Assembly: GCA_054600435.1 (NCBI GenBank)
Contig: BAAIJX010000005.1
Location: forward strand, 793,930-813,929
Length of the DNA stretch: 20,000 nucleotides
Direction of reading: 5' to 3'
Source of the DNA: Neophaeotheca triangularis
Lineage: Eukaryota
Shown here: positions 3,930-16,843 of the stretch, piece by piece
How the letters are laid out: each line of letters starts with the position of its first letter
Position numbering within the stretch: the first letter of the stretch is position 1
Translations under genes and position numbers: made by a program
Notes under the pieces: model-generated
The model's input: only the letters and a program-made list of their open reading frames with translations
Database searches by the model: none
Told to the model about the DNA's origin: nothing

Positions 3930-5435
3930 CTACCTCGCGCCCACCTCACCCGCCTCGACCTTCGCCGCCACCTCCTGAGCCCAGACCCGCTTCTCCACCT
4001 CCAACATGTGGAAAACATACCAGAAAGTCATGGCGGTGAAAATCGCCGCCCAGACGAACGGCACGGACCAGCCAACGATGTAAGCTGGATCCTCTTTGAG
4101 GGTGAAGACTAGGATTGTAGTCAAGGTAGCCGCAGCCTGCGCGCCCACCGCCCAGAAAATCCCCAGTCGCCTTAACATGGCACGGAAAACGTGACTGGCT
4201 TCATAGCGGGCGTTAAGTCGTTGGCGAAACTCTTCACCACCGCCGCCGTCGACGGCGCAGATGTCTTCGACGAGCGAGTAGAGGCAGGGGCGGATCTGGG
4301 AGCCTTTGGGGATCGAGGAGATACGGAAGGGCGATGGGACGTGGAAATAGCGTAGGATGTCGGCGATCATGAGTTCGGTGCCGAACCAGTAGCACATTGT
4401 CGCGACGGGCATGGAAAGGAGGCGGATCGGAGGGTCCTCTTGGGTCGAGCCGCTGGGATGGGATGTTAGTGACCATGTTGGCTAGAGGTAGGTGGGTTGG
4501 TGGGGTTTAGCTTACTAGCAAAGCTCGATCATAATTACCAGCCAGGCAGAGCTGAAGTTCCAATGGAACCAGTCGAGATACCAGCGATTTGCGCCCAGGG
4601 GTCGGCATGTGCTGCTCTTTTTCCACAGATTCCACCATCGCATGAAATACTCAATGATTGAAACACCTCCGAGTGCGGCTGTCACGACGGAAAATACGGT
4701 GTTTGGGGATAGCCCGTACCCCCCGTACCACAGCCCAAAGTATAAACCGATTGGCATTGCTATGCTGTCAAGCGCTGTCAAGCCCCAGAAGATACAGATC
4801 GTCAATTTCCTCGTCCGAAGGGTGTAGTTGAGCGGCGGTGGGACTGGCGCAAACGAGGGATCGTTGCTGGACTGCATAGTCTCGACACTCAACGGCTGCG
4901 GTTCGCTGGCATGGTGACCATGTTCGGCTGGATGCTCAGGCGATGTGGGAAGCGGCCCTGACGACTTTCTCCGTGTCATGGTGACGGACGGTCTACCAAA
5001 GGGTCCATCCCGACGTGTGTCAAATTCAGCGCTCGGCCTAGAGCGCCATTTCTGTTGACTGCTGTGCCTCCTTGCTCTTTCGCTCTCTTCCGCGCTGACA
5101 CCTACTGGACTTGTAGGCGTTTGCGAGTCCGGCCCAGCTGGAGACGTTACGCCGCCAGGGTTCGTAACGTCTTCCTCTCTCGGCATTGGGCTTGTCGCGG
5201 GAGTCTCAAACTTTTCGTCCTGTTGCGAGGATTGTCGACGGGGTGGTTGCACCGAAGGTCTGTTGTCTATTGAATCCGTTGCCTCGGCGACTTCATGTTG
5301 CTTTGGGTCGGTCGGGAATGGTTGTTCGGCTGGACCGTCGGTGCGAGTGTCGAAGTCATGGTGTTTTGGGTCTACAGCGAGGGAGGGTCGATGGTCGGGG
5401 TTGCCGGTCTTAGATGGGCGATGATCGTGGTTCAT
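3930..5435 (-). CDS. Uncharacterised fungal multipass membrane protein with long disordered N-terminus, 480 aa, 2 exons
   Basis: Exons 5435-4516 and 4452-3930. Intron 4515-4453 is GTAAGC...CTAAC...CAG and joins IELCY-GSTQEDPPIRLLSMP in frame. About 200 aa of Pro/Ser/Arg-rich N-terminus is followed by about 6 hydrophobic segments. Start context is CAAAC-ATG. Confidence 0.85.
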
Positions 5436-5479
5436 GTTTGGTTGCTCTCATGTAGTAATGTAAGTATCGCAAGAAGTGT

Positions 5480-5830
5480 GAGTCTATGATGGGGATGGAT
5501 GTGTCCGGATCGAGGCGGATGACGATTGGGTGGGAGGGTGGTAGTGTGTAGTAGAGGGAATAAAACGAGCGAAGGGGATGGGAAGGAAGTGTAAGGTGGG
5601 TAGGATAACTAAGAGAACGAGGTAGGAGGGATGGCAAGGGAAAGGGAAAGGAAAGGAAAGTGGCAGTGGCAGTGGCAGTAGGTAGTAATTGGAAGGTAGT
5701 AAGGTAGTTAGCGTCTCGACGTTGGCAACGTAAGGTAAGGTAAAGGTTGGGGTCGAGACTCGATTCTGCCGAACGTGGAGAAAGAGTTGGGAGGGAAGTG
5801 TGGAAGTGGAAGTGGAAGAAGGTGGACTTG
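5480..5830. repeat. Polypurine/polypyrimidine low-complexity tract with short tandem repeats, upstream of the membrane protein gene
   Basis: GGGAAA/GGAAA run 5638-5659, (GTGGCA)3 5660-5677, GTAAG repeats near 5730-5745, (GTGGAA)3 5800-5817. The tract is CT-rich on the strand coding for the downstream gene, as in fungal core promoters and 5'UTRs. Confidence 0.7.
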
Positions 5831-6446
5831 CACTACTACTGAACAATAATCTAACCTCAAGGGCTTGGAAGTTAATTGAAATCTCGATGAGATCACATCC
5901 GTAGTCCAACCGTCACGGGTAGTAACCCCATCAATATCAATCAAAAATAATAATAATATCCAAGGCATGATGGCCCATCTATTTCCATCCACCTCCACTA
6001 ATATCTTACCAGCCGTGGACCCGTGGACCCTACAGTATTTTCCTCTACCTCTGCAACCTCATGCCCTTACTACTATGTAGTATCAAGTGTCAACAAACAC
6101 AGGCGGACGTTGACAGAATCTACCTACTCTTAATTATCATCAATCAACAAACTCTTCCATCAGCCTTCCAGGTTCTGCTGCAATTCATTCAAGATTCTCC
6201 CGGCAATTCAAGCCTTTTGTGACATCACAACAAGCCTGCTGCCCTGCGCCACATGAGCCCGACAAGATGCCAACGCCGCTGTTCCCGCCAGGTACGCGAC
6301 GCTGTGTGACATGCGCCGAGCACCCGTGAAGACGACGACTTGGACGACCTACCTTAGTAAAAAACCTGTCTTCTCTTCCCCCCTCCGCCTAACTTACAGC
6401 ACTGTAGCCTTATCTGATAACATGTGATTGTGATCGCTGTGAAGCC

Positions 6447-7583: not shown

Positions 7584-8673
7584 GTAGCACAACGTGTGCG
7601 GGTTGACACAGGTGAGGGTGCTGAATAGACGGCGGGTGTTTTATTGAAGTTCGAATCATGACAGTATTCTGCGTGTAAGTCTCCAATCGAAAATGTCGAT
7701 CTTCCACGCTTGCGAGGTTCTCTTTGCTTCGCGCTCCGCTACGTTCTTTCCCGACGTGTCGGAAGGGTTTTCTTGATAACCCCGCCTTGGATTTTGTGAT
7801 CCTTGGTGGTCTGATGCTTCTGTGGTACCCTCGATCTTCTTTTCCACACATGTGAGCAAGCCGGTATTGAAGGTCTTACACGCCACCCGGCGTTCCGGGG
7901 GTCGGTGTTCTGGCGGTCTTGTGGGAAGGACTTGAGCGCAAACGAAAGGACCGGCCTCGATTGGCGCGATGAGACCTCTGCTGGGAGTTGATCGATGGAG
8001 AGGGACTCGGCGATTAGAGATGCGGCGTTGAGGCATAAGTAAGAGTCGTTTAAGCGTGAGAAGCCGGGACTACTGAGTATAAGTGAGATGAGGTGAAATG
8101 AGGTAAGGTGATGCTCCATCCCCGGGGTTATCCTGCCCCTTCGCTGTTGCCTTCACTTTGGACCATTCTCGCAGGTCTTCTTCACTTGTCGCTCGTACAG
8201 CATCCCCTGTCCGGTCATGGCGCAAAAGAAGGAAGAGCTCAATGAATTTCCCGAGAAAGAACGGGGGCTTGCTGGCACCTCTGGACTACATCTGCCACGC
8301 GGTCCTGGTCATATGCTCCACTGTCACCATAGCTTCTTTACAAGAGGGAGGGAGGAGGTGATGTCGTCGAGCCAGAAACATCCGGCAGCTAGCGCCGGGC
8401 GAGACGAACCACCCAGCTCGCTCGCGCCTCCGCGCTAGCTGAGGGACGTGTTTCACCCGGCGACCTCACCTCGTCTTTTGGGCGAGACGGCAGGTGGTCT
8501 ACACTGATTGGTGGGCGTAGCAAAGTCTGATGCTCGCTCGGGCCAGACTCACAAGCCTCTAACTAGTCACCATGGCCTTTGACCCGTGCGGCTTGGCTCA
8601 TTGTGAGGTTGTTTGGATCCCTTCCCTGCCTACCTACAGAAAGACATGCAAGTTCATTGGCGCTAGAAGTGTG

Positions 8674-10756
8674 CTAACGTGATGGAGACTCGGTCTCTTC
8701 GGTCTCACGCTCGTTGAGCGACAATATCACCCCGTCCGCTGCCCGCAACCTATGCCTCTCCACGACTGGTGGCATGCTATCAGGCAGTCAGCTTTCGCTA
8801 TTCAATGACAAGGCACTACTTTGGTGGCCACTCTCATACCTAAGCACTTTTGGGTTTCCGTCATCTAAACGTGTCCCTAGATAACCGCATCGTGTCGGGC
8901 TCGTGGCCAGCACCTTCAACCGGTATTCGCCCGTGTCTTTGTCGGCCAAGTCATACAGCGAGTTGAAAAAGTCTCGGGTGTCATGGTACCGTTTGCGGTC
9001 TTCGTAAAAAGATACGCAATCGAGAATGAAGAACACCGAGCTTTTCTTAAGCTGTGCGTCCAGGAGACACATGAAGATCGCGAGCAGATCATCAAAGCTC
9101 GTACAATCTGCACGTAGACCGGACAGAGTGACAGCTAGGAGGATGTTCCTTTCCCCCTTCTGCAGCAGCTGTCCTGTTGCATCTCGAAGAATATGATCAG
9201 CTCTGTCGTGGATGTTCCGATAGCAGGTCCAGTACAATACGACATCTTTACTTTGCTCCGCCAAAGCTTGCGCCATCATTGCAGAGAAAAGCGACACCGG
9301 CGAGTCCCGCTCGTGTGAAGCTTCTCGGCCGTTGACGACCAAGATATGCGATGATGAGTCGCTTTGGAGCCATGTAAGAATCTCCGCCGATTGGAAGAGC
9401 CACACGGCACGATCTTGCGCTCGGATGTTGGTATCGATACCAGTTTTGAGACAGTCGAGGAGATCTTGGGTTTGTTTCACTGGGTCATATCCAAGCTCCA
9501 GAAGAAAGCCCCCTGCGGATATGATTAGCCGCCTGCCGATGCCATGTGTCTCTAACAGTACGGGACTTACGTTTATTAGTGTCAATCACGACCCCAAGCT
9601 GCTTCTCTAGCGCTAGAATAATTTCTTCCCTCTTTCGCGAGTGCTCTTCCTGCTGACGCTTCTCGCCTTCATCGTATTGCAACTTTTCGCACGTGCGCTC
9701 GAGGGTGGCCACAGCTGTTTCCAGATTACCGGTGAAGAGTCCGAGCGCATTGTTCAGAACATTGACCTCGACTCCACCTTCTCGCGAGCCTGAGGGCGAT
9801 GTGTCAACGTCCATTGAGAAGATAATGGCGATTTTGATGTTGGAAGACTTACTAGTGTACATCTCGTGCATCTTTGCGTGCAAACCTGCATCTGCTATTT
9901 GATCTATTTTGTGACCCAACCCTCTCAGTGCCGCTCGCTTCTCCTTCAACCCCTTCGCATGATCGCTACCTTTGAGTGCGGAAAATGCTTTAGTGACCGG
10001 ATTCCTTGTCAACCAAGCCAGGCATTCTTGCAAGAGTTGTAGGATCGTCACCACCAGTTCAGACACGTGATACCTCATCATCCCAGTATCGTAACACCGA
10101 GCAAGATCCTTGACAATCTCCATCGTGAATGGGATTTGCTGAATCGAGTCTATGATCTCGCTGTTGACTTGATTCAATTGGTGGGCAGCGGCTAGTACCA
10201 ACTTCATGCCGCCACAAATTCCAGAACCCTGCCACGACTCCGACGGGAGGAACTATAGTTAACATTGATTATTAGCTCAACTCTGCAAGAAGATTTGATT
10301 CCATCGTACTTGGAGAAACTGCTCGCATGGCACCGTTGAGCTCCGCAGCTTTCGAAGGCACTTTCTGATGTGGTCCGATTTTGCGTTGGATAGGTATTTG
10401 TACCGATCGTAGGCGACAACGACTCCGTTCAGCTGCTCAACAACATCGTTCCATCGATAATCACTCGATCTGTCCAGGCGAAAATCGAGTTTGACTTTGT
10501 TGTCCTTTTCGAATCTCGCTGCGGCTTCGAGAAATTCTTGCTGCTGACGGTTCATTTCGTCCGTCACCTGGATCGGCTCGTTGATGACTTGGCTGTCATG
10601 CTCGACATACCGTCCTTTGGGGACACTGTAAACCGCATCCGAAGCGCTGAGTTGCTCGAATTTGGGATGCACGCTCGCAAGGTGATTGTCCACGAATGCC
10701 ACAACTGGATTCAGCTGCGGTTCGAGTCCTTTCTCTCTTAGCGGGATGGCGGACAT
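8674..10756 (-). CDS. NACHT/NPHP3-N-like protein with helical N-terminal domain and degenerate P-loop, about 613 aa, 5 exons
   Basis: Exons 10756-10310, 10252-9853, 9789-9571, 9512-8840, 8776-8674. GT-AG introns 10309-10253, 9852-9790, 9570-9513, 8839-8777, all preserving frame. ACC-ATG start at 10756, with alternative in-frame ATGs up to 10831. Motifs FLPSESWQGSGICGGMKLVLAAA, TWLQSDSSSHILVVNG, VVLYWTC, LRDATGQLL, FFILDCVSFYE and LKVLATSP follow the NACHT motif order, but there is no GxxGxGK. Family assignment is by motif recognition only. Confidence 0.75.
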
Positions 10757-12801
10757 GGTTACTGGAGTGCTCGACGGTTGATAAATTACGGTCCTTTCGA
10801 GGGCGGACATTTGCAGCGCTGGCGTCTTCATCTATAGGAACCTCCATACCCAGCTATAGCTGCCACACGTCCCGGAGGCTGCCCCAAGGGCGCACGCAAC
10901 GGCGCCAGAGTAGATGCTGTAGAGCATACACCACCAACATCGCCAGCTGCAGATCTCGCATCGTGCTAGCGGTCAGTGCATCAAGCGTGCTGGCACCTTA
11001 GGTACTCATTCATCTCTGGGTCGGCTCCAGAGCTGTCCGCTCCAGTACAGTAAGCCGCCACAGTGCTAGCCCGTAGACCACTGCTCGTTACTGACCGGTG
11101 CGACGCTGTTCGTGTTGATGCAGCCGCACATACGCAACCACTCTGACATCCACACCATCAATGCCTTTTAGGCTTTTACCTTGTCAGCTTACCCGTGCAG
11201 AAGCGACGTGACATTCTAGCTACCTACCTGTAAGCGCCTAGGCATCTGGATCACCACCGATGCCAAGCCCTTCAGCCTTGCCTTCACAAACTACAGTACT
11301 TAATCCCGAGTCGAATCCTTCAGCCTACAGCCTTATCTTTTTTTTTTTTTCCCTTCCACGGATCCCTTGCTATCCATCCGAGGTATGGAGGGTGTTAAAT
11401 CATCTCGCATCTTTCGTGGTTGTACTTGGTCACCTGCAGCTTGGTATTGACAAGGGCCTTGTCCTCTTCTCTCCGTACCTCAAATTCTGGATTTCCGTGC
11501 TGGTCCAGACTCGGACTTCAGCCATGCCAGCATGCCAGCCTTGCATTCAACCCCTCATCTTCATCATCCTGAACCAAAATAAGCCCGGAGGACGTTTCTA
11601 CCGCCTTCATACCAGTTGGCAGAGCTCAGTCTGCGAAGCGCTTTGGGCTTGCCTGGGAATCATCTAGAGCCGAATATTTCAGCATTGTTCTCCTACCTCC
11701 TACCTTCTAAAAATTATCGACGGTACATCTTTCGACTCGTGTTTCGCACAGCTGGCACTGCATCTTTTAGCCACTTCCACCACGTTGGAGGTTGAGATCT
11801 GAGGTCAAAGACAAGCAAGTCTCAGCCTTGGGACCGGGCGGCAGTCGACCCAGTGTTCAAGCGGTACGTTTCCACTTCTGCTCTTCCACATGACATACAG
11901 GCCTACGTTATGTACCGAGGCCGTAAGCGAAAGATAGTGCTGTACTATACATCCCTCGAGCTCGTCGTTGCTCAAAGCTGAGTGTTGTTGATCTACGCAA
12001 TATACGATCACACCATCCTAGAACAGCGGGTCTAGAGAAGAGGCAGGGTTATGTTCCTTGCTATACAATAATACAACCTCAGCCTCGAATTTCCAGCGCC
12101 CCCTCGCTCTAGACACGAACGGCCTACGCTTCAGACAACAGAAACGACCGGCTAAAGTATACTAGAATTGCGTTGGCTCTGGAAACGGTCTTAAAGAGCC
12201 TTTGTACTCTTCATCAGCCTGAAATTCGCCTTAACACCCAGCGAGATTGAATTCAGCCCCCATCACGGAATATCGATGAATCGAGATACAACAAGGCAAG
12301 GAGCTTGTAAGTGGCAATACCATGAGCTTGCGGCTGCGTTCCTTTCACGACAGTGATGTTCAGACATCGGCTTGCGCGCTTATGCACATGGAGGAGTAGG
12401 GTCTCATTGGAGGTTGCACCGGCATGTCCGATGACTGACATGACCGGCCAAACTTGACTCCATGACTTTCAGGACAGCTCAGCTGTATGAAGACAGTCTC
12501 GCGTAGCTGTACACTCTAGGCTGTCAACTGTGCCGCCCACGAGGTAAAGTATCCAATATTGCATGCACACCATGCAGCTTACCCAGCCGTAAGCTTCATT
12601 CAGGAAAGGATACGTCCGGCGTCTGCTCGTGTACACTGGACGGGATTGTATTGGCTGCCAAGCTTCAATGCGTTATATCAAGGTGCGACGACCCGCTCTT
12701 CCCGAGCGCAAACACATTACGAACGTTTTACTTTATCCTTGCAAAGGCCATTGACCGCGATTGTTTCTGTCTCAATGTAATTGCGATTGCCTCTCTCAAG
12801 G

Positions 12802-15800
12802 ATGGCTACCACACAGTCCACACTCTTATCTTCAAATGGAGATGGCCACGTGCAGATCAAATCTGGCTCAGCGATTTCTGGAGAGGCGACCCCAAACATC
12901 CCGTCCAGCGGACATGATACACCCTCAGGCGACTTGGCTCCGTCGAAAATCGGCTTGAACGACGAAGTCGCTACCAATGGGACAGGCGCCAAGCCTGCCG
13001 GCTCCCTCGAGATAGCTGCTGCCACAGTCGACACTGCTATCGGGGAAACAAACGACCACGTCGGTAAAGTTAAAGCCGATGGATACGAGACTGACCAGGA
13101 GGATGAGTATACCCTCAAACAAACCCTTGCAGATGATCTACGATACCCAAGCCTGGCTGCACCCTTGGAGGAACGGCGAAAGTCTTCCCAAAAGCGAAGC
13201 CTCCAAGCTTCCTCTTATTTAATATTGCTCGAAGATCGCGTGCGAGATCTCGAAAAGATCGTAACTGCTCTACAAACGGAAAAAGTCGATGCAAAGGCAG
13301 ACGCGGCTGACGATCAGACTGAAGCGCAGCCTGAAGCGAACGTCCACAAATCCGACGACCTGCGCCCGGTCGTGGCCAAATTGCAGTGGGCCGCATTCTC
13401 TGGAGCCGTATCCACCACCCCCTTGGCAAAAGATGTCCATGTTGTAGAGCTCCTGATTCAGCGGCCATACTCCTTTGAGGTTCGAAGCCAATCCTTGGGG
13501 AAACGCCACCGGAAGCACCTTGACCCTCCGGATGAACAGTCGGAGGCGCTCGTGCAGCGAATCAGGCACAACTCAGAGAGCTTGTCACGCATTTTCGAAG
13601 AAATCCTGGACAAAGATCATTACCCAAAAGAGGCGGAGGATCAACTCAGACCTTTCAAAGCCCTGGTACCATACGCTGAAGAGCTTCGCGCAAAGAAGGA
13701 AGAGCTGGAAGAGTTGCTGTCAAATTTACCAGCGCCACCAGAGGATTCATCGGTGGGTGATGGCGAACCGAAGTCATCCCCTCTCGCTCACAACGAGACT
13801 CGTAGTGGCGGGGAGGCGAAGCAAGTTCCTGTATTTCACGACGCTGCTCCCCTGGCCGATTCACCATTGCCTGGATCGGATGCGAAAGATATTGAGTCAG
13901 ACAAGGAGCGGTCTGACGTTGTCAGATCGCTTGAGCATCTTCAGCCTCTACTCGATTGTCTGAATGGCAACCTTGCCGTTGAAGTGGCTCGTCACCAGAG
14001 GCTGAGAGCGTGCCACACTGGCGGTAAAGCGGCGGGCTCTACCAGAGTTTCCTTTGATGAGCTGTGGCACCTATTTGCTCCAGGTGATCTTGTCTATGAC
14101 CCAAAGGAATATCAAGCATTGAAGGTCTTGGCTGTCACAGGCGGGAGGCAGCACCTGATCGAAGAGCATGGGGACGGAAAGACCATCGGCGCTGGGGGCC
14201 TACCATACGAAGCTGGACTTGACCGAGGCTTCGACGATCATTTCGCTGTTGGCGACTTTCAACGTCTGACGCTCACTGGAACTGAGCAGACCTCTGATTT
14301 TGTTCTCAGTTGTTTTTACCTCCGGTCCAATGGCGCACGAGTCGGTCCCATCCAAACTACGCGAGTCATCAAAGCCTTTGAGGGATTGAGAGAGATCAAA
14401 GATTTGGCGCTCATGCCCGTGGCTTACGCAGAGACAGAGTCGTTTTCCATGGGACGGACAGGCGAGAGTGACATTGGCGAGCGCGGAAAAACCGTTCAAC
14501 AGGTTCTGCTGGAGAGAGGCAGGAAATACGCTGAGCTGGCTCTCAAAGGGCAAGCCGGTAAATACAGCCTGCATCCTCAAATGGGACTGAGAGACGCTAA
14601 CACCACCTTATAGCTCACCGTGAATACAGTGGCTTCAGTCTGGGCTCGATCAGGGAGCAGGTGAGTAAGGCCATGACCTCCCCTCTCATTGCAGTGCTAA
14701 CCATTTCGGCAGCTTGATTCAGAGGTGATCGTAGATCTAGATTACTATCACCAGTCTCATCCCGAAGCCGAGCCTCTTTTCGGCCTTCACCAACCGCCTG
14801 ACGCTGAAGCACAGGAAACAAGGGAGAAGCTCCTGGTAAAATGTACCTGTTCGATCCCTAATTGCTCCTACAAGACGCTGCACGAGTCCACGATTTTCGA
14901 CGACTCCGTCGTCGACAAGTTGCGCACAGACAAGTATTTGAGGCAGCACCCGTACTTGGTACGATGGAGTGAGGATCAGTATCAGAGGTTTATGCTATCT
15001 GCCGACGACTGCATCATTCTGTTTCCGCGGGAGATGTGGGGTTTTGTGTTGAGGACTCGGGAATTCAGTGAGCTCATGACACATTTTCCCATTGATGTTT
15101 AGTAAAACCTATACTAATATGATACAGCGCGGCTCGATGTTCTGCGGATTACCGAGGTGGCACCAAGAGTACAAAGTTTCGACGAGCTGGTGCTACCCGA
15201 CGAACACCGGCGTATTGTGCAAGGCTTGGTAGAGACTCACAGTAGGGGCCTTCGTCCGGTCCAGGACGCTATGGGCAACAAGGGCCTCGGAGAGCGCGAA
15301 GATCTGGTTCGTGGCAAAGGAAAAGGGGTCATCATTCTGCTCCATGGCGTCCCTGGAGTAGGCAAGGCAAGTCGCATAAAACACTCCCTTTCGACTAGCC
15401 GCTCAAAGAGCTAACGAACGCGGAAGACGTCCACAGCAGAGTGCGTTGCGGAGTACACCAAACGACCCCTGTTTTCCCTTACATGCGGTAGGATCAGATG
15501 TTCCATTGCAAAGAGTAAACACCCACTAATTGTCAGCAGGCGACATTGGTGACAACGCGCAGGACGTTGAGAAGAACTTGAGAACGAACTTCCAGCTCGC
15601 TCATCGATGGGGCTGCGTCATGCTTCTCGACGAGGCTGACGTCTTCCTTCAGTCTCGAAGCACCAACCGCGACCTCACAAGGAACGCCGTCGTTTCGGTG
15701 TTTTTGGGCATGCTAGAGTACTATTCCGGCATTCTTTTCCTGACAACCAACAAGATCGGCACCTTCGATGAGGCCTTCAAATCGCGCATTCACGTTTCAC

Positions 15801-16405
15801 TCTACTACCAGGAGCTTGACAAGGAACAGACCCTGAAGATATGGAAATTGAATCTGGAGCGAATCAAGAAGACCCGCAAAGGTGTGGTGTACGAAGAAAA
15901 GAAAATGATGAGATGGATGGAAAAGCTCTACGAGCAGAACGAGAATGATGAAGTTCGGCCTTGGAATGGTCGCCAAATCCGCAACGCTTGCCAGACAGCA
16001 GCAGCTCTCGCGGAGTTCGTAAACAAGGACGATCCTGTGAAGGCAAGTTGACTGCTCCGGCTTCCGCAAAATCTTTGCGCTGACAAACAGCAGACCATAA
16101 CAAGGGAAGAGCTCAATGCTGTGGCGACCGTCAGTGCTGAGTTCGATCGCTACCTGGAGGCAACCCACGGTACGGACGACATCGGGCGAGCTGAAGCTAA
16201 CTATGAGCGTGGTGACCATAAGTATCATGAGTGGCTTGAGAGAACCCTCAAAGATATGAAGCAACCTTCTCGCTCAGTGAGACCTCGCAAAGAACGTTCG
16301 CCGCCACGCAAGTACTCCACCACCAAGAAGGCCAGAAAAGAGACCACAAGGGCACCGGGAGGTATATCGGATAGCGAATCATCGGGCGACAATCGCCGTC
16401 GATGA
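12802..16405 (+). CDS. Large fungal AAA+ ATPase with long N-terminal region (DUF7025-like), about 1090 aa, 7 exons
   Basis: Exons 12802-14557, 14614-14660, 14713-15067, 15128-15366, 15427-15487, 15540-16042, 16094 (or 16091)-16405. Walker A LLHGVPGVGKTSTAECVA, Walker B MLLDEADVF, sensor 1 LFLTTN, arginine finger DEAFKSRIH, lid WNGRQIRN. Upstream family motifs VSFDELWHLFAPGDLVY and SFDELVLP. Confidence 0.92.
15367..15426 (+). other. Non-canonical GC-AG intron inside Walker A
   Basis: AAG|GCAAGT donor, GCTAAC branch at 15410-15415, AAG acceptor. Removal is required to join GVGK to TSTAE, and the intron carries an in-frame TAA at 15412-15414. Confidence 0.85.
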
Positions 16406-16843
16406 GGCTGATGTGATAGCCATTGAGGTGGGCGGTTGATTCCATTTCTCTGGACATGCGTGAGCATTGTGAGCAAGGGTTTATTGATTTTTCACGGCCA
16501 TGTTATAACGATTTCGGCAGCTTACTCTTGTATGACCCGTGCTCTGAATCCCTCTAAACTCGTTTTAGTTGCATGCAGATGGACCGGGGGGATTGCCGTG
16601 ATACACATCAGCTCGTAGCCACAACACTCTGGATGATACCGTAACGAGGCTGAACCCACTTGGTAGTCAAGACTCCACGAAGCGCTCTTTGTATTGGATT
16701 GACGGATGGTGCTGGCGACTGTCTTGCGAGGCAGGAAGCGTAAGCCTTTCTATGCCGACATCTGGACCTGTTCGCCTCATGATGGGTCGCCTTTGATGGC
16801 GATCCTACTTCTACGCCGGGGGTGATTTGATATGCCCGCAGGC

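Follow-up and report, generated by a model that had tools for sequence, protein, structure and literature searches.

Fungal NOD-like receptor (NLR)-like proteins are thought to switch through nucleotide binding and exchange by a NACHT or NB-ARC domain of their own. In plants, head-to-head NLR pairs such as RGA4/RGA5 and RPS4/RRS1 are made up of two full NLRs, while the bacterial IetAS system, involved in anti-phage defence and plasmid stability, combines the AAA ATPase IetA with a non-ATPase partner, the protease IetS. Active and inactive ATPases can also be found in one assembly, as some subunits of the origin recognition complex (ORC) are catalytically silent and ORC/Cdc6 rings mix active and inactive AAA+ subunits. 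In the het-S/nwd2 system of Podospora, a receptor activates the effector encoded next to it (excerpt of PMC4344463). Here, a pair of divergent genes is described in a 20,000-nt stretch of the genome of Neophaeotheca triangularis (assembly GCA_054600435.1, contig BAAIJX010000005.1, positions 793,930 to 813,929 of the forward strand; hereafter the window). Gene A, on the minus strand, encodes an NLR-derived protein without a P-loop, and gene B, on the plus strand, encodes an AAA ATPase with its catalytic motifs in place. Both genes are intact and lie head-to-head, with 2045 bp between their start codons (10757-12801), and their NCBI proteins, g6166 (P0001) and g6167 (P0151), carry consecutive locus numbers. 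The same arrangement recurs in a second fungal locus. The evidence for the pairing is suggestive, and it is plausible that A and B form a linked two-gene unit.

Gene A and its family

Gene A spans positions 8674-10756 and encodes a protein of 613 amino acids, with a splice model that is identical to P0001. Its coding exons lie at 10756-10310, 10252-9853, 9789-9571, 9512-8840 and 8776-8674 (stop included), running from the ATG at 10756 to the stop codon at 8674 with four GT-AG introns of 57, 63, 58 and 63 nt. A second version of the whole locus, 2-5% diverged over positions 8600-16500, is found in a run with the same organism label (run X2), and could represent another strain or a second haplotype. 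Since this version has an extra G at 10763, which breaks the frame from an upstream in-frame ATG at 10831, the latter is unlikely to be the start of gene A and the ATG at 10756 is preferred.

The N-terminal part of the protein is a helical head of the DUF7708 or Goodbye-like kind (aa 163-276; 9872-10213, minus strand), which matches Pfam DUF7708 with 37.8 bits against a cut-off of 25 and falls within a helical bundle at approximately aa 66-242 in an AlphaFold2 model. The closest ESM Atlas clusters of this head are DUF7708, Goodbye and NACHT_N, with a score of 0.93 that is drawn from language-model features and serves as a lead only. Goodbye-like and HeLo-like heads have been grouped together as MLKL-like (excerpt of PMC9815663). 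The head is followed by two long linker helices at aa 246-319 and 325-362 (9493-9964, including intron 2 at 9790-9852 and intron 3 at 9513-9570) and by a NACHT-derived alpha/beta core at aa 365-587 (8755-9486, including intron 4 at 8777-8839). Within this core, aa 393-560 match NPHP3_N (PF24883), the N-terminal half of NACHT-type NTPases, with 31.9 bits (cut-off 24.8). The strand and loop equivalent to Walker A (aa 411-430; 9289-9348) do not contain the GxxxxGK[ST] motif, both in the sequence and in the family alignment. A Walker-B-like strand, VFFILDCVSFYED, is present at aa 515-527 (8998-9036), where residues 515-520 are modelled as a strand and D520 and E526 are invariant across the 12 closest relatives. 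When compared with the NACHT Walker B consensus hhhhD[GAS]hDE (excerpt of PMC12258605), the first D is invariant and D[SG]h is found in most relatives, whereas S..YE(D) stands in place of the DE pair.

The AlphaFold2 model, which was built on a 150-sequence alignment, has a mean predicted local distance difference test (pLDDT) score of 82.5 and is thus confident. It places five strands in the core (411-416, 446-451, 515-520, 554-560 and 577-580), followed by a disordered tail; no lid, winged helix or repeats are present in the model, and the chain stops some 30 residues past the fifth strand. With Foldseek, the alpha/beta domain matched the cores of ORC4/5, HslU and TnsC (E 2e-4 to 1e-2). Alignment of the region around aa 365-587 with VIA-align gave Z scores of 14.0-12.0 for Cdc6/ORC, 13.4 for Avs3, 12.6 for ZAR1, 11.8 for NRC2, 11.1 for CED-4 and 11.0 for Apaf-1. 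The best fold matches of the core are therefore Cdc6 and ORC proteins. This is a likeness of fold rather than of shown sequence kinship, and gene A differs from these proteins in having neither the lid nor the winged-helix parts from which rings are built. At the sequence level, gene A has no relative in the PDB (best E 0.6), and a protein homologue search seeded with its exon 4 returned the protein itself alone.

The NACHT-like order of motifs without Walker A, which an earlier note on this DNA had read from the sequence, thus holds by sequence, profile and fold. Gene A shares with the fungal NACHT NLRs of the NWD and HET-E/D kind the class of its head (Goodbye-like, DUF7708 or NACHT_N), the NPHP3_N match, the core fold, and a Walker-B-like hydrophobic strand that ends in D with a small residue next to it in most relatives. 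It differs from them in the displacement of the second acidic pair of Walker B and, as do the family members examined, in the absence of Walker A, lid, winged helix and a sensor made of ANK, WD40 or TPR repeats. Gene A is accordingly NLR-derived but is not an NLR.

When 1.84 billion proteins (50%-identity representatives) were searched with HMMER, gene A had 456 relatives at E<=1e-3, 134 at E<=1e-10 and 13 at E<=1e-30. The best 150 of these were aligned and 129 of them span the Walker A segment. None of the 129 has GxxxxGK[ST] at the expected site, and in only one does the motif occur elsewhere in the protein. The best 150 relatives have a median length of 566 aa and a maximum of 741 aa; none is longer than 800 aa. 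In 40 long relatives picked out of the 150, NPHP3_N was found in 33 and DUF7708 in 32 (E<=1e-3), with no other Pfam family detected at this threshold, hence no ANK, WD40 or TPR repeats. In place of the P-loop the family presents a signature of its own, LL(V/I)NGN followed by a variable stretch and SP.SF, together with the further motifs QDRA, FCG, QLL, the Walker-B-like strand ending in D and then S.YE, and KLL.TSP. Its members come mainly from Ascomycota and are proteins of approximately 560-740 aa with the same head, long helices and P-loop-less core. Many short relatives of 200-300 aa span exactly exon 4 of gene A, and may be single-exon open reading frame (ORF) calls rather than real short proteins. 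The existence of a P-loop-less family is solid. What sets it apart is that a conserved group of proteins keeps an NLR-type head and core fold without P-loop, lid or sensor.

The two versions of the locus also bear on the constraint acting on gene A. Among the differences between X2 and the window that are listed (40 of 385 over the whole stretch), 36 fall in the gene A region (8757-10793), of which 18 are synonymous, 10 non-synonymous and 8 intronic or upstream of the start. This corresponds to a dN/dS of approximately 0.16 (420 synonymous and 1419 non-synonymous sites) for two strains and for the listed differences only, as the X2 pieces shown span only part of gene A. Two of the listed indels (12 listed, with 16 more) are near gene A, one in intron 3 and the other upstream of the ATG. 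Judged by these substitution counts, gene A is under purifying selection. The earlier note had described a P-loop-dead NACHT-like gene, but a reading of gene A as a "dead" NLR copy is not borne out: because the P-loop is missing from the family as a whole and the dN/dS is low, gene A is not a single decayed gene.

Gene B and its bacterial relatives

Gene B extends over positions 12802-16405 of the plus strand and encodes 1090 aa in the splice model, with exons at 12802-14557, 14614-14660, 14713-15067, 15128-15366, 15427-15487, 15540-16042 and 16094-16405. Two of its six introns are of the GC-AG type (15367-15426 and 16043-16093), both with GCAAGT donors; the former interrupts Walker A, whose GK and T codons lie in separate exons. 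The corresponding NCBI protein, P0151, has 976 aa; it does not include aa 643-655 of the 1090-aa model and it ends at a TGA after 16042. At the first of these sites, P0151 excises 39 nt at about 14833-14871, which is very short for an intron and falls in an unconserved region. At the second, the GC-AG intron is left unspliced, with the result that the lid is shortened and around 100 C-terminal residues are lost, including the basic tail. Since the AAA_lid_13 profile carries on from one ORF (profile positions 1-69) into the next (positions 74-104), the 3' end of the 1090-aa model is preferred.

After an N-terminal region of some 400 aa of low complexity, gene B contains three domains in order, each above its Pfam cut-off. 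DUF7025 lies at aa 414-543 (14041-14430) with 66.1 bits (66-67 bits across the Pfam matches), the AAA core (PF00004) at aa 789-908 (15334-15805) with 70.7 bits, and the AAA_lid_13 lid at 15815-16180 with 46.4 bits, spanning the intron at 16043-16093 and including GRQIRN at aa 963-968; a basic tail closes the protein. The earlier note's description of an intact AAA+ ATPase is confirmed by the presence of Walker A (GVPGVGKT, aa 793-800; 15346-15429, interrupted by the intron at 15367-15426), Walker B (LLDEAD, aa 848-853; 15623-15640) and sensor 1 (TTN, aa 888-890; 15743-15751). The closest PDB sequences are the classical AAA proteins Rix7, VAT, p97, Msp1 and Vps4 (E 7e-10 to 4e-5), and no PDB match was obtained when only the second half of the AAA domain served as query. 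In the alignment to the D2 domain of Rix7, the pore-loop-1 position of gene B reads TCGDIGDNA (15481-15559) and contains no aromatic residue, with N-A-Q opposite the pore-loop Y-V-G. With regard to the arginine fingers of the second region of homology, the comparison of FK..SR in gene B with RRPGR in Rix7 indicates that one arginine is kept and that the other position is occupied by K. From these motifs, gene B probably hydrolyses ATP. Since the aromatic pore loop is absent, it seems unlikely that it threads substrates in the manner of the unfoldases Cdc48 or Vps4.

All the listed indels between X2 and the window in gene B keep the frame. Some of them lengthen or shorten the disordered N-terminal part without a frameshift, among them a 60-nt insertion-like joint near 13290-13338. 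In a source-like run (X1), other contigs match positions 15607-15649, in the Walker B region, with 6 mismatches, and therefore at least one paralogue of gene B appears to exist elsewhere in the genome. Of the protein homologue searches seeded with exon 1 of gene B, one was empty and another returned the protein itself and three partial relatives. DUF7025 had no match in the control genomes scanned.

Relatives of gene B are also found in bacteria. Of 394 pattern matches in the genomes of bacteria and archaea, 77 were confirmed, all of them bacterial loci (L003-L079). Most of the encoded proteins have 525-570 aa and are 36-49% identical to gene B over approximately aa 700-920, and the GVPGVGKT and LLDEADVF motifs and the non-aromatic pore loop are common to gene B and these relatives (38% identity over 233 aa). 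The ATPase module of gene B is much nearer to these stand-alone proteins, with their length of about 530 aa, than to any of the eukaryotic AAA proteins retrieved from the PDB, which hints, as far as sequence comparison goes, at an old transfer of the module between bacteria and fungi. Gene B has the three domains of the fungal DUF7025-AAA-AAA_lid_13 ATPases and the motifs and non-aromatic loop of the bacterial relatives, and it stands apart through its long N-terminal region, its basic tail and a neighbour of family A, which none of the 77 bacterial loci has. Hosts of the bacterial genes include Methylophaga, Gordonia, Kluyvera, Brevibacterium and Citricoccus, and several of the genes are on plasmids (an example of the family is L005, 9230-10843). 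A 974-aa ORF in a metagenome-assembled genome of Candidatus Colwellbacteria (L077, 7637-10561) contains DUF7025 and AAA together with an intein insertion made up of Hint and homing-endonuclease domains.

The best PADLOC and NCBIfam match of gene B and of its bacterial relatives is the anti-phage ATPase IetA/IteA (NF042959), with 53.8 bits. The assignment of gene B as IetA/IteA was rejected, given an equivalog cut-off of 510 bits and a match that is confined to the AAA core. The arrangement at the present locus resembles IetAS in that an AAA ATPase is found with a non-ATPase partner; no peptidase family was detected by Pfam among the scanned ORFs of the window, and hence no IetS-like protease partner.

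Recurrence of the gene pair

The earlier note had proposed that the two proteins form one functional unit. To what extent the pair recurs was addressed with a scan of metagenome contigs seeded with the five closest relatives of gene A, in which 2 of 161 pattern matches were confirmed (L001 and L002). The same seed led to no confirmed locus among 48 pattern matches in bacterial and archaeal genomes or among 35 in viral contigs. L001 (2145 nt) is too short to be informative on neighbours, as its A-like gene is represented by the 3' part alone. In L002, a fungal contig of 17,744 nt, a plus-strand ORF (8499-9245) is A-like and scores 220 bits against the hidden Markov model (HMM) of family A. Directly upstream of it, in head-to-head orientation, a multi-exon B-like gene runs on the minus strand from around 8378 down to around 5740. 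This gene has Pfam matches to DUF7025 and AAA, and over the exon with Walker A and B its identity to gene B is 60%. Introns 2 and 3 of gene B have counterparts at the same positions in this gene, behind the equivalents of IREQ and REF, which points to a common descent of the B-like gene and gene B.

Identity between L002 and the window is approximately 25%, in gene A as well as in the DUF7025 part of gene B. When ORFs of at least 60 aa from the window were compared with L002 (E<=1e-4), only those of A and B had a match, and among the genes scanned beside the L002 pair there is a type III polyketide synthase, along with several ORFs that lack a Pfam match. The head-to-head pair has thus been kept in L002 while the surrounding genes differ. 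The polyketide synthase gene (L002, 3279-4505, minus strand) encodes the N- and C-terminal domains of chalcone synthases and is separated by about 1.2 kb from the B-like gene, whose 3' end is placed approximately. As a background figure, DUF7025 genes number in the tens among the roughly 10,000 genes of a fungal genome. At this density, a B-type gene would be expected next to an A-type gene by chance in well under 1% of cases. The linkage of A and B is likely to be non-random.

Adjacent genes with a related logic are known from the plant NLR pairs and from het-S/nwd2, which can include a P-loop-independent member or a receptor acting on a neighbouring effector. Unlike the plant pairs, neither A nor B is a full NLR, and B is a classical AAA protein and not a signal transduction ATPase with numerous domains (STAND). 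Het-S/nwd2 differs in turn by its templating motif, for which no counterpart common to A and B was found by blastp-short, and the shared motif of this type that could be expected from the earlier note's analogy is not borne out.

A possible mode of action and its alternatives

With P-loop, lid and sensor absent from the proteins themselves, the control of family A is a puzzle. In the reading favoured here, A and B would be an inherited, linked two-gene unit with a shared bidirectional promoter. Gene A would be an adaptor or effector derived from an NLR, which would have kept the NLR-type head and an oligomerisation-type core and would be unable to switch itself via nucleotide exchange. Since A could not switch itself, its assembly state would be set in trans by the ATPase of gene B, whose role would be that of a switch or remodeller powered by ATP and, given the missing aromatic pore loop, not that of a threading unfoldase. 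The control exerted by B on A could be either activation or restraint. The functional coupling of A and B is a serious possibility, if one that falls a little short of an even chance. A conserved partnership of this kind, if true, would make ATP-driven control in trans a concrete and testable answer to the puzzle, and it would provide the first functional handle on DUF7708, DUF7025 and AAA_lid_13, none of which has had one so far. The names and accession numbers of these three families were in no paper of the full-text literature searched, and the fungal and NLR literature searched contained nothing on a pairing of A-type and B-type genes, only general NLR papers. A role in cell death or defence is doubtful, and one in non-self recognition is conjectural; the idea comes solely from the head class of gene A, which occurs on fungal NLRs. 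The fullest version of the proposal, a "split NLR" in which a widespread, Goodbye-headed and NACHT-derived Ascomycota family without a switch and sensor of its own would be armed or disarmed by a divergent AAA ATPase of bacterial ancestry, as an undescribed fungal cell-death or immune switch, must be considered unlikely.

Several observations weigh against a partnership of A and B. The linkage is backed by a single independent locus, L002, which is the one informative locus out of one, and whose organism may be close enough to N. triangularis for the pair to be inherited microsynteny without selection. The A-like copy in L002 is itself reduced: its first exon encodes 27 residues (ATG at 8368, intron at 8449-8499) instead of a head of approximately 350 residues, DUF7708 is missing, and 47 HMM positions that correspond to strand 1, the loop, helix 1 and strand 2 are gone, so that this copy could be a relic, or else a form reduced still further. 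Among the bacterial loci of gene B relatives, the family A HMM detected an A-like ORF in 0 of 77. No conserved partner of any kind was found beside these genes, whose scanned neighbours encode metabolic enzymes and LysR regulators for the most part; the largest cluster of neighbours is present in 31 of the 77 loci, on either side and either strand, and its scanned member is a catechol dioxygenase. As the bacterial relatives stand alone, the ATPase family does not generally need an A-like partner. A comparison of A with B by blastp-short found no shared short motif (best E 2.2; no dedicated amyloid-motif model was run), and the dN/dS of gene A depends on 36 of 385 differences with incomplete coverage. 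A complex prediction with aa 400-976 of B and aa 355-613 of A, run without alignments, gave ipSAE values of 0.00 and 0.00, which speak neither for nor against a contact of the two. The proposal of the earlier note that the pair is a unit has therefore fared unevenly, since the head-to-head arrangement recurs in L002 with no other gene shared, whereas the relatives of B in bacteria are found on their own.

The main rival explanation is that A and B are independent neighbours, each functional but unrelated to the other, with the L002 pairing as leftover microsynteny or coincidence. This has an appreciable chance of being right, given a pairing at only one independent locus, in an organism that may be a relative of N. 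triangularis, the stand-alone bacterial relatives, and a spacer in the window that, at 2 kb, is long for a shared promoter. On the other hand, the pair has been kept though all other genes within about 8 kb differ between the two loci, the two conserved intron positions of B speak for a shared ancestry of the pair, with identity down to about 25%, and adjacency by chance would be rare at the gene density given above. It may also be that A and B share a bidirectional promoter and respond to one and the same condition (for example stress or a biotic challenge), but act on different targets without interacting. The divergent orientation at both loci would agree with this, as would the fact that B has a putative substrate-side domain of its own, DUF7025, and stands alone in bacteria; no finding contradicts it directly, but co-regulation without interaction is judged quite unlikely. 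Finally, gene A could be a decaying, truncated NLR pseudogene that lies beside an ATPase by chance, as its lack of Walker A, lid, winged helix and repeats and the internal 47-position deletion of the L002 copy might suggest. This reading is largely refuted, and its probability is very small, because the short P-loop-less architecture is found across the family and is accompanied by family-specific conserved motifs, the dN/dS is about 0.16 with no listed indel that breaks the frame in the second strain, and the fold model is confident.

Genomic context of the pair

The coordinates of both genes in the earlier note proved exact when compared with the splice models and the NCBI proteins. Taken jointly, the gene models and family assignments are held with very high confidence. 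The neighbouring genes in the window, as identified by Pfam, encode a Bax inhibitor-1 protein, a fasciclin protein, a class-3 lipase (Lipase_3), a HAD hydrolase and sdhB. Lipase, HAD hydrolase and sdhB had already been named in the earlier note and were found again, while the fasciclin and Bax inhibitor genes are additional. The picture of an intron-rich pair amid intron-poor genes is only partly retained: the lipase and HAD genes are indeed single ORFs, but the sdhB and fasciclin genes are each split over two frames.

In the interval between the fasciclin and lipase genes (3930-5912, minus strand), long ORFs of 183, 310, 140 and 142 aa are present, none of them with a Pfam match, and these are probably one intron-containing gene that Pfam does not assign to a family. 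The intergenic region shared by A and B has no Rfam match and contains a 16-nt direct repeat in two copies as the single repeat found. Many indels distinguish this region in X2 from that in the window. At 11689-11724, it also includes a 36-nt element that is matched by other contigs of run X1 with 6 mismatches.

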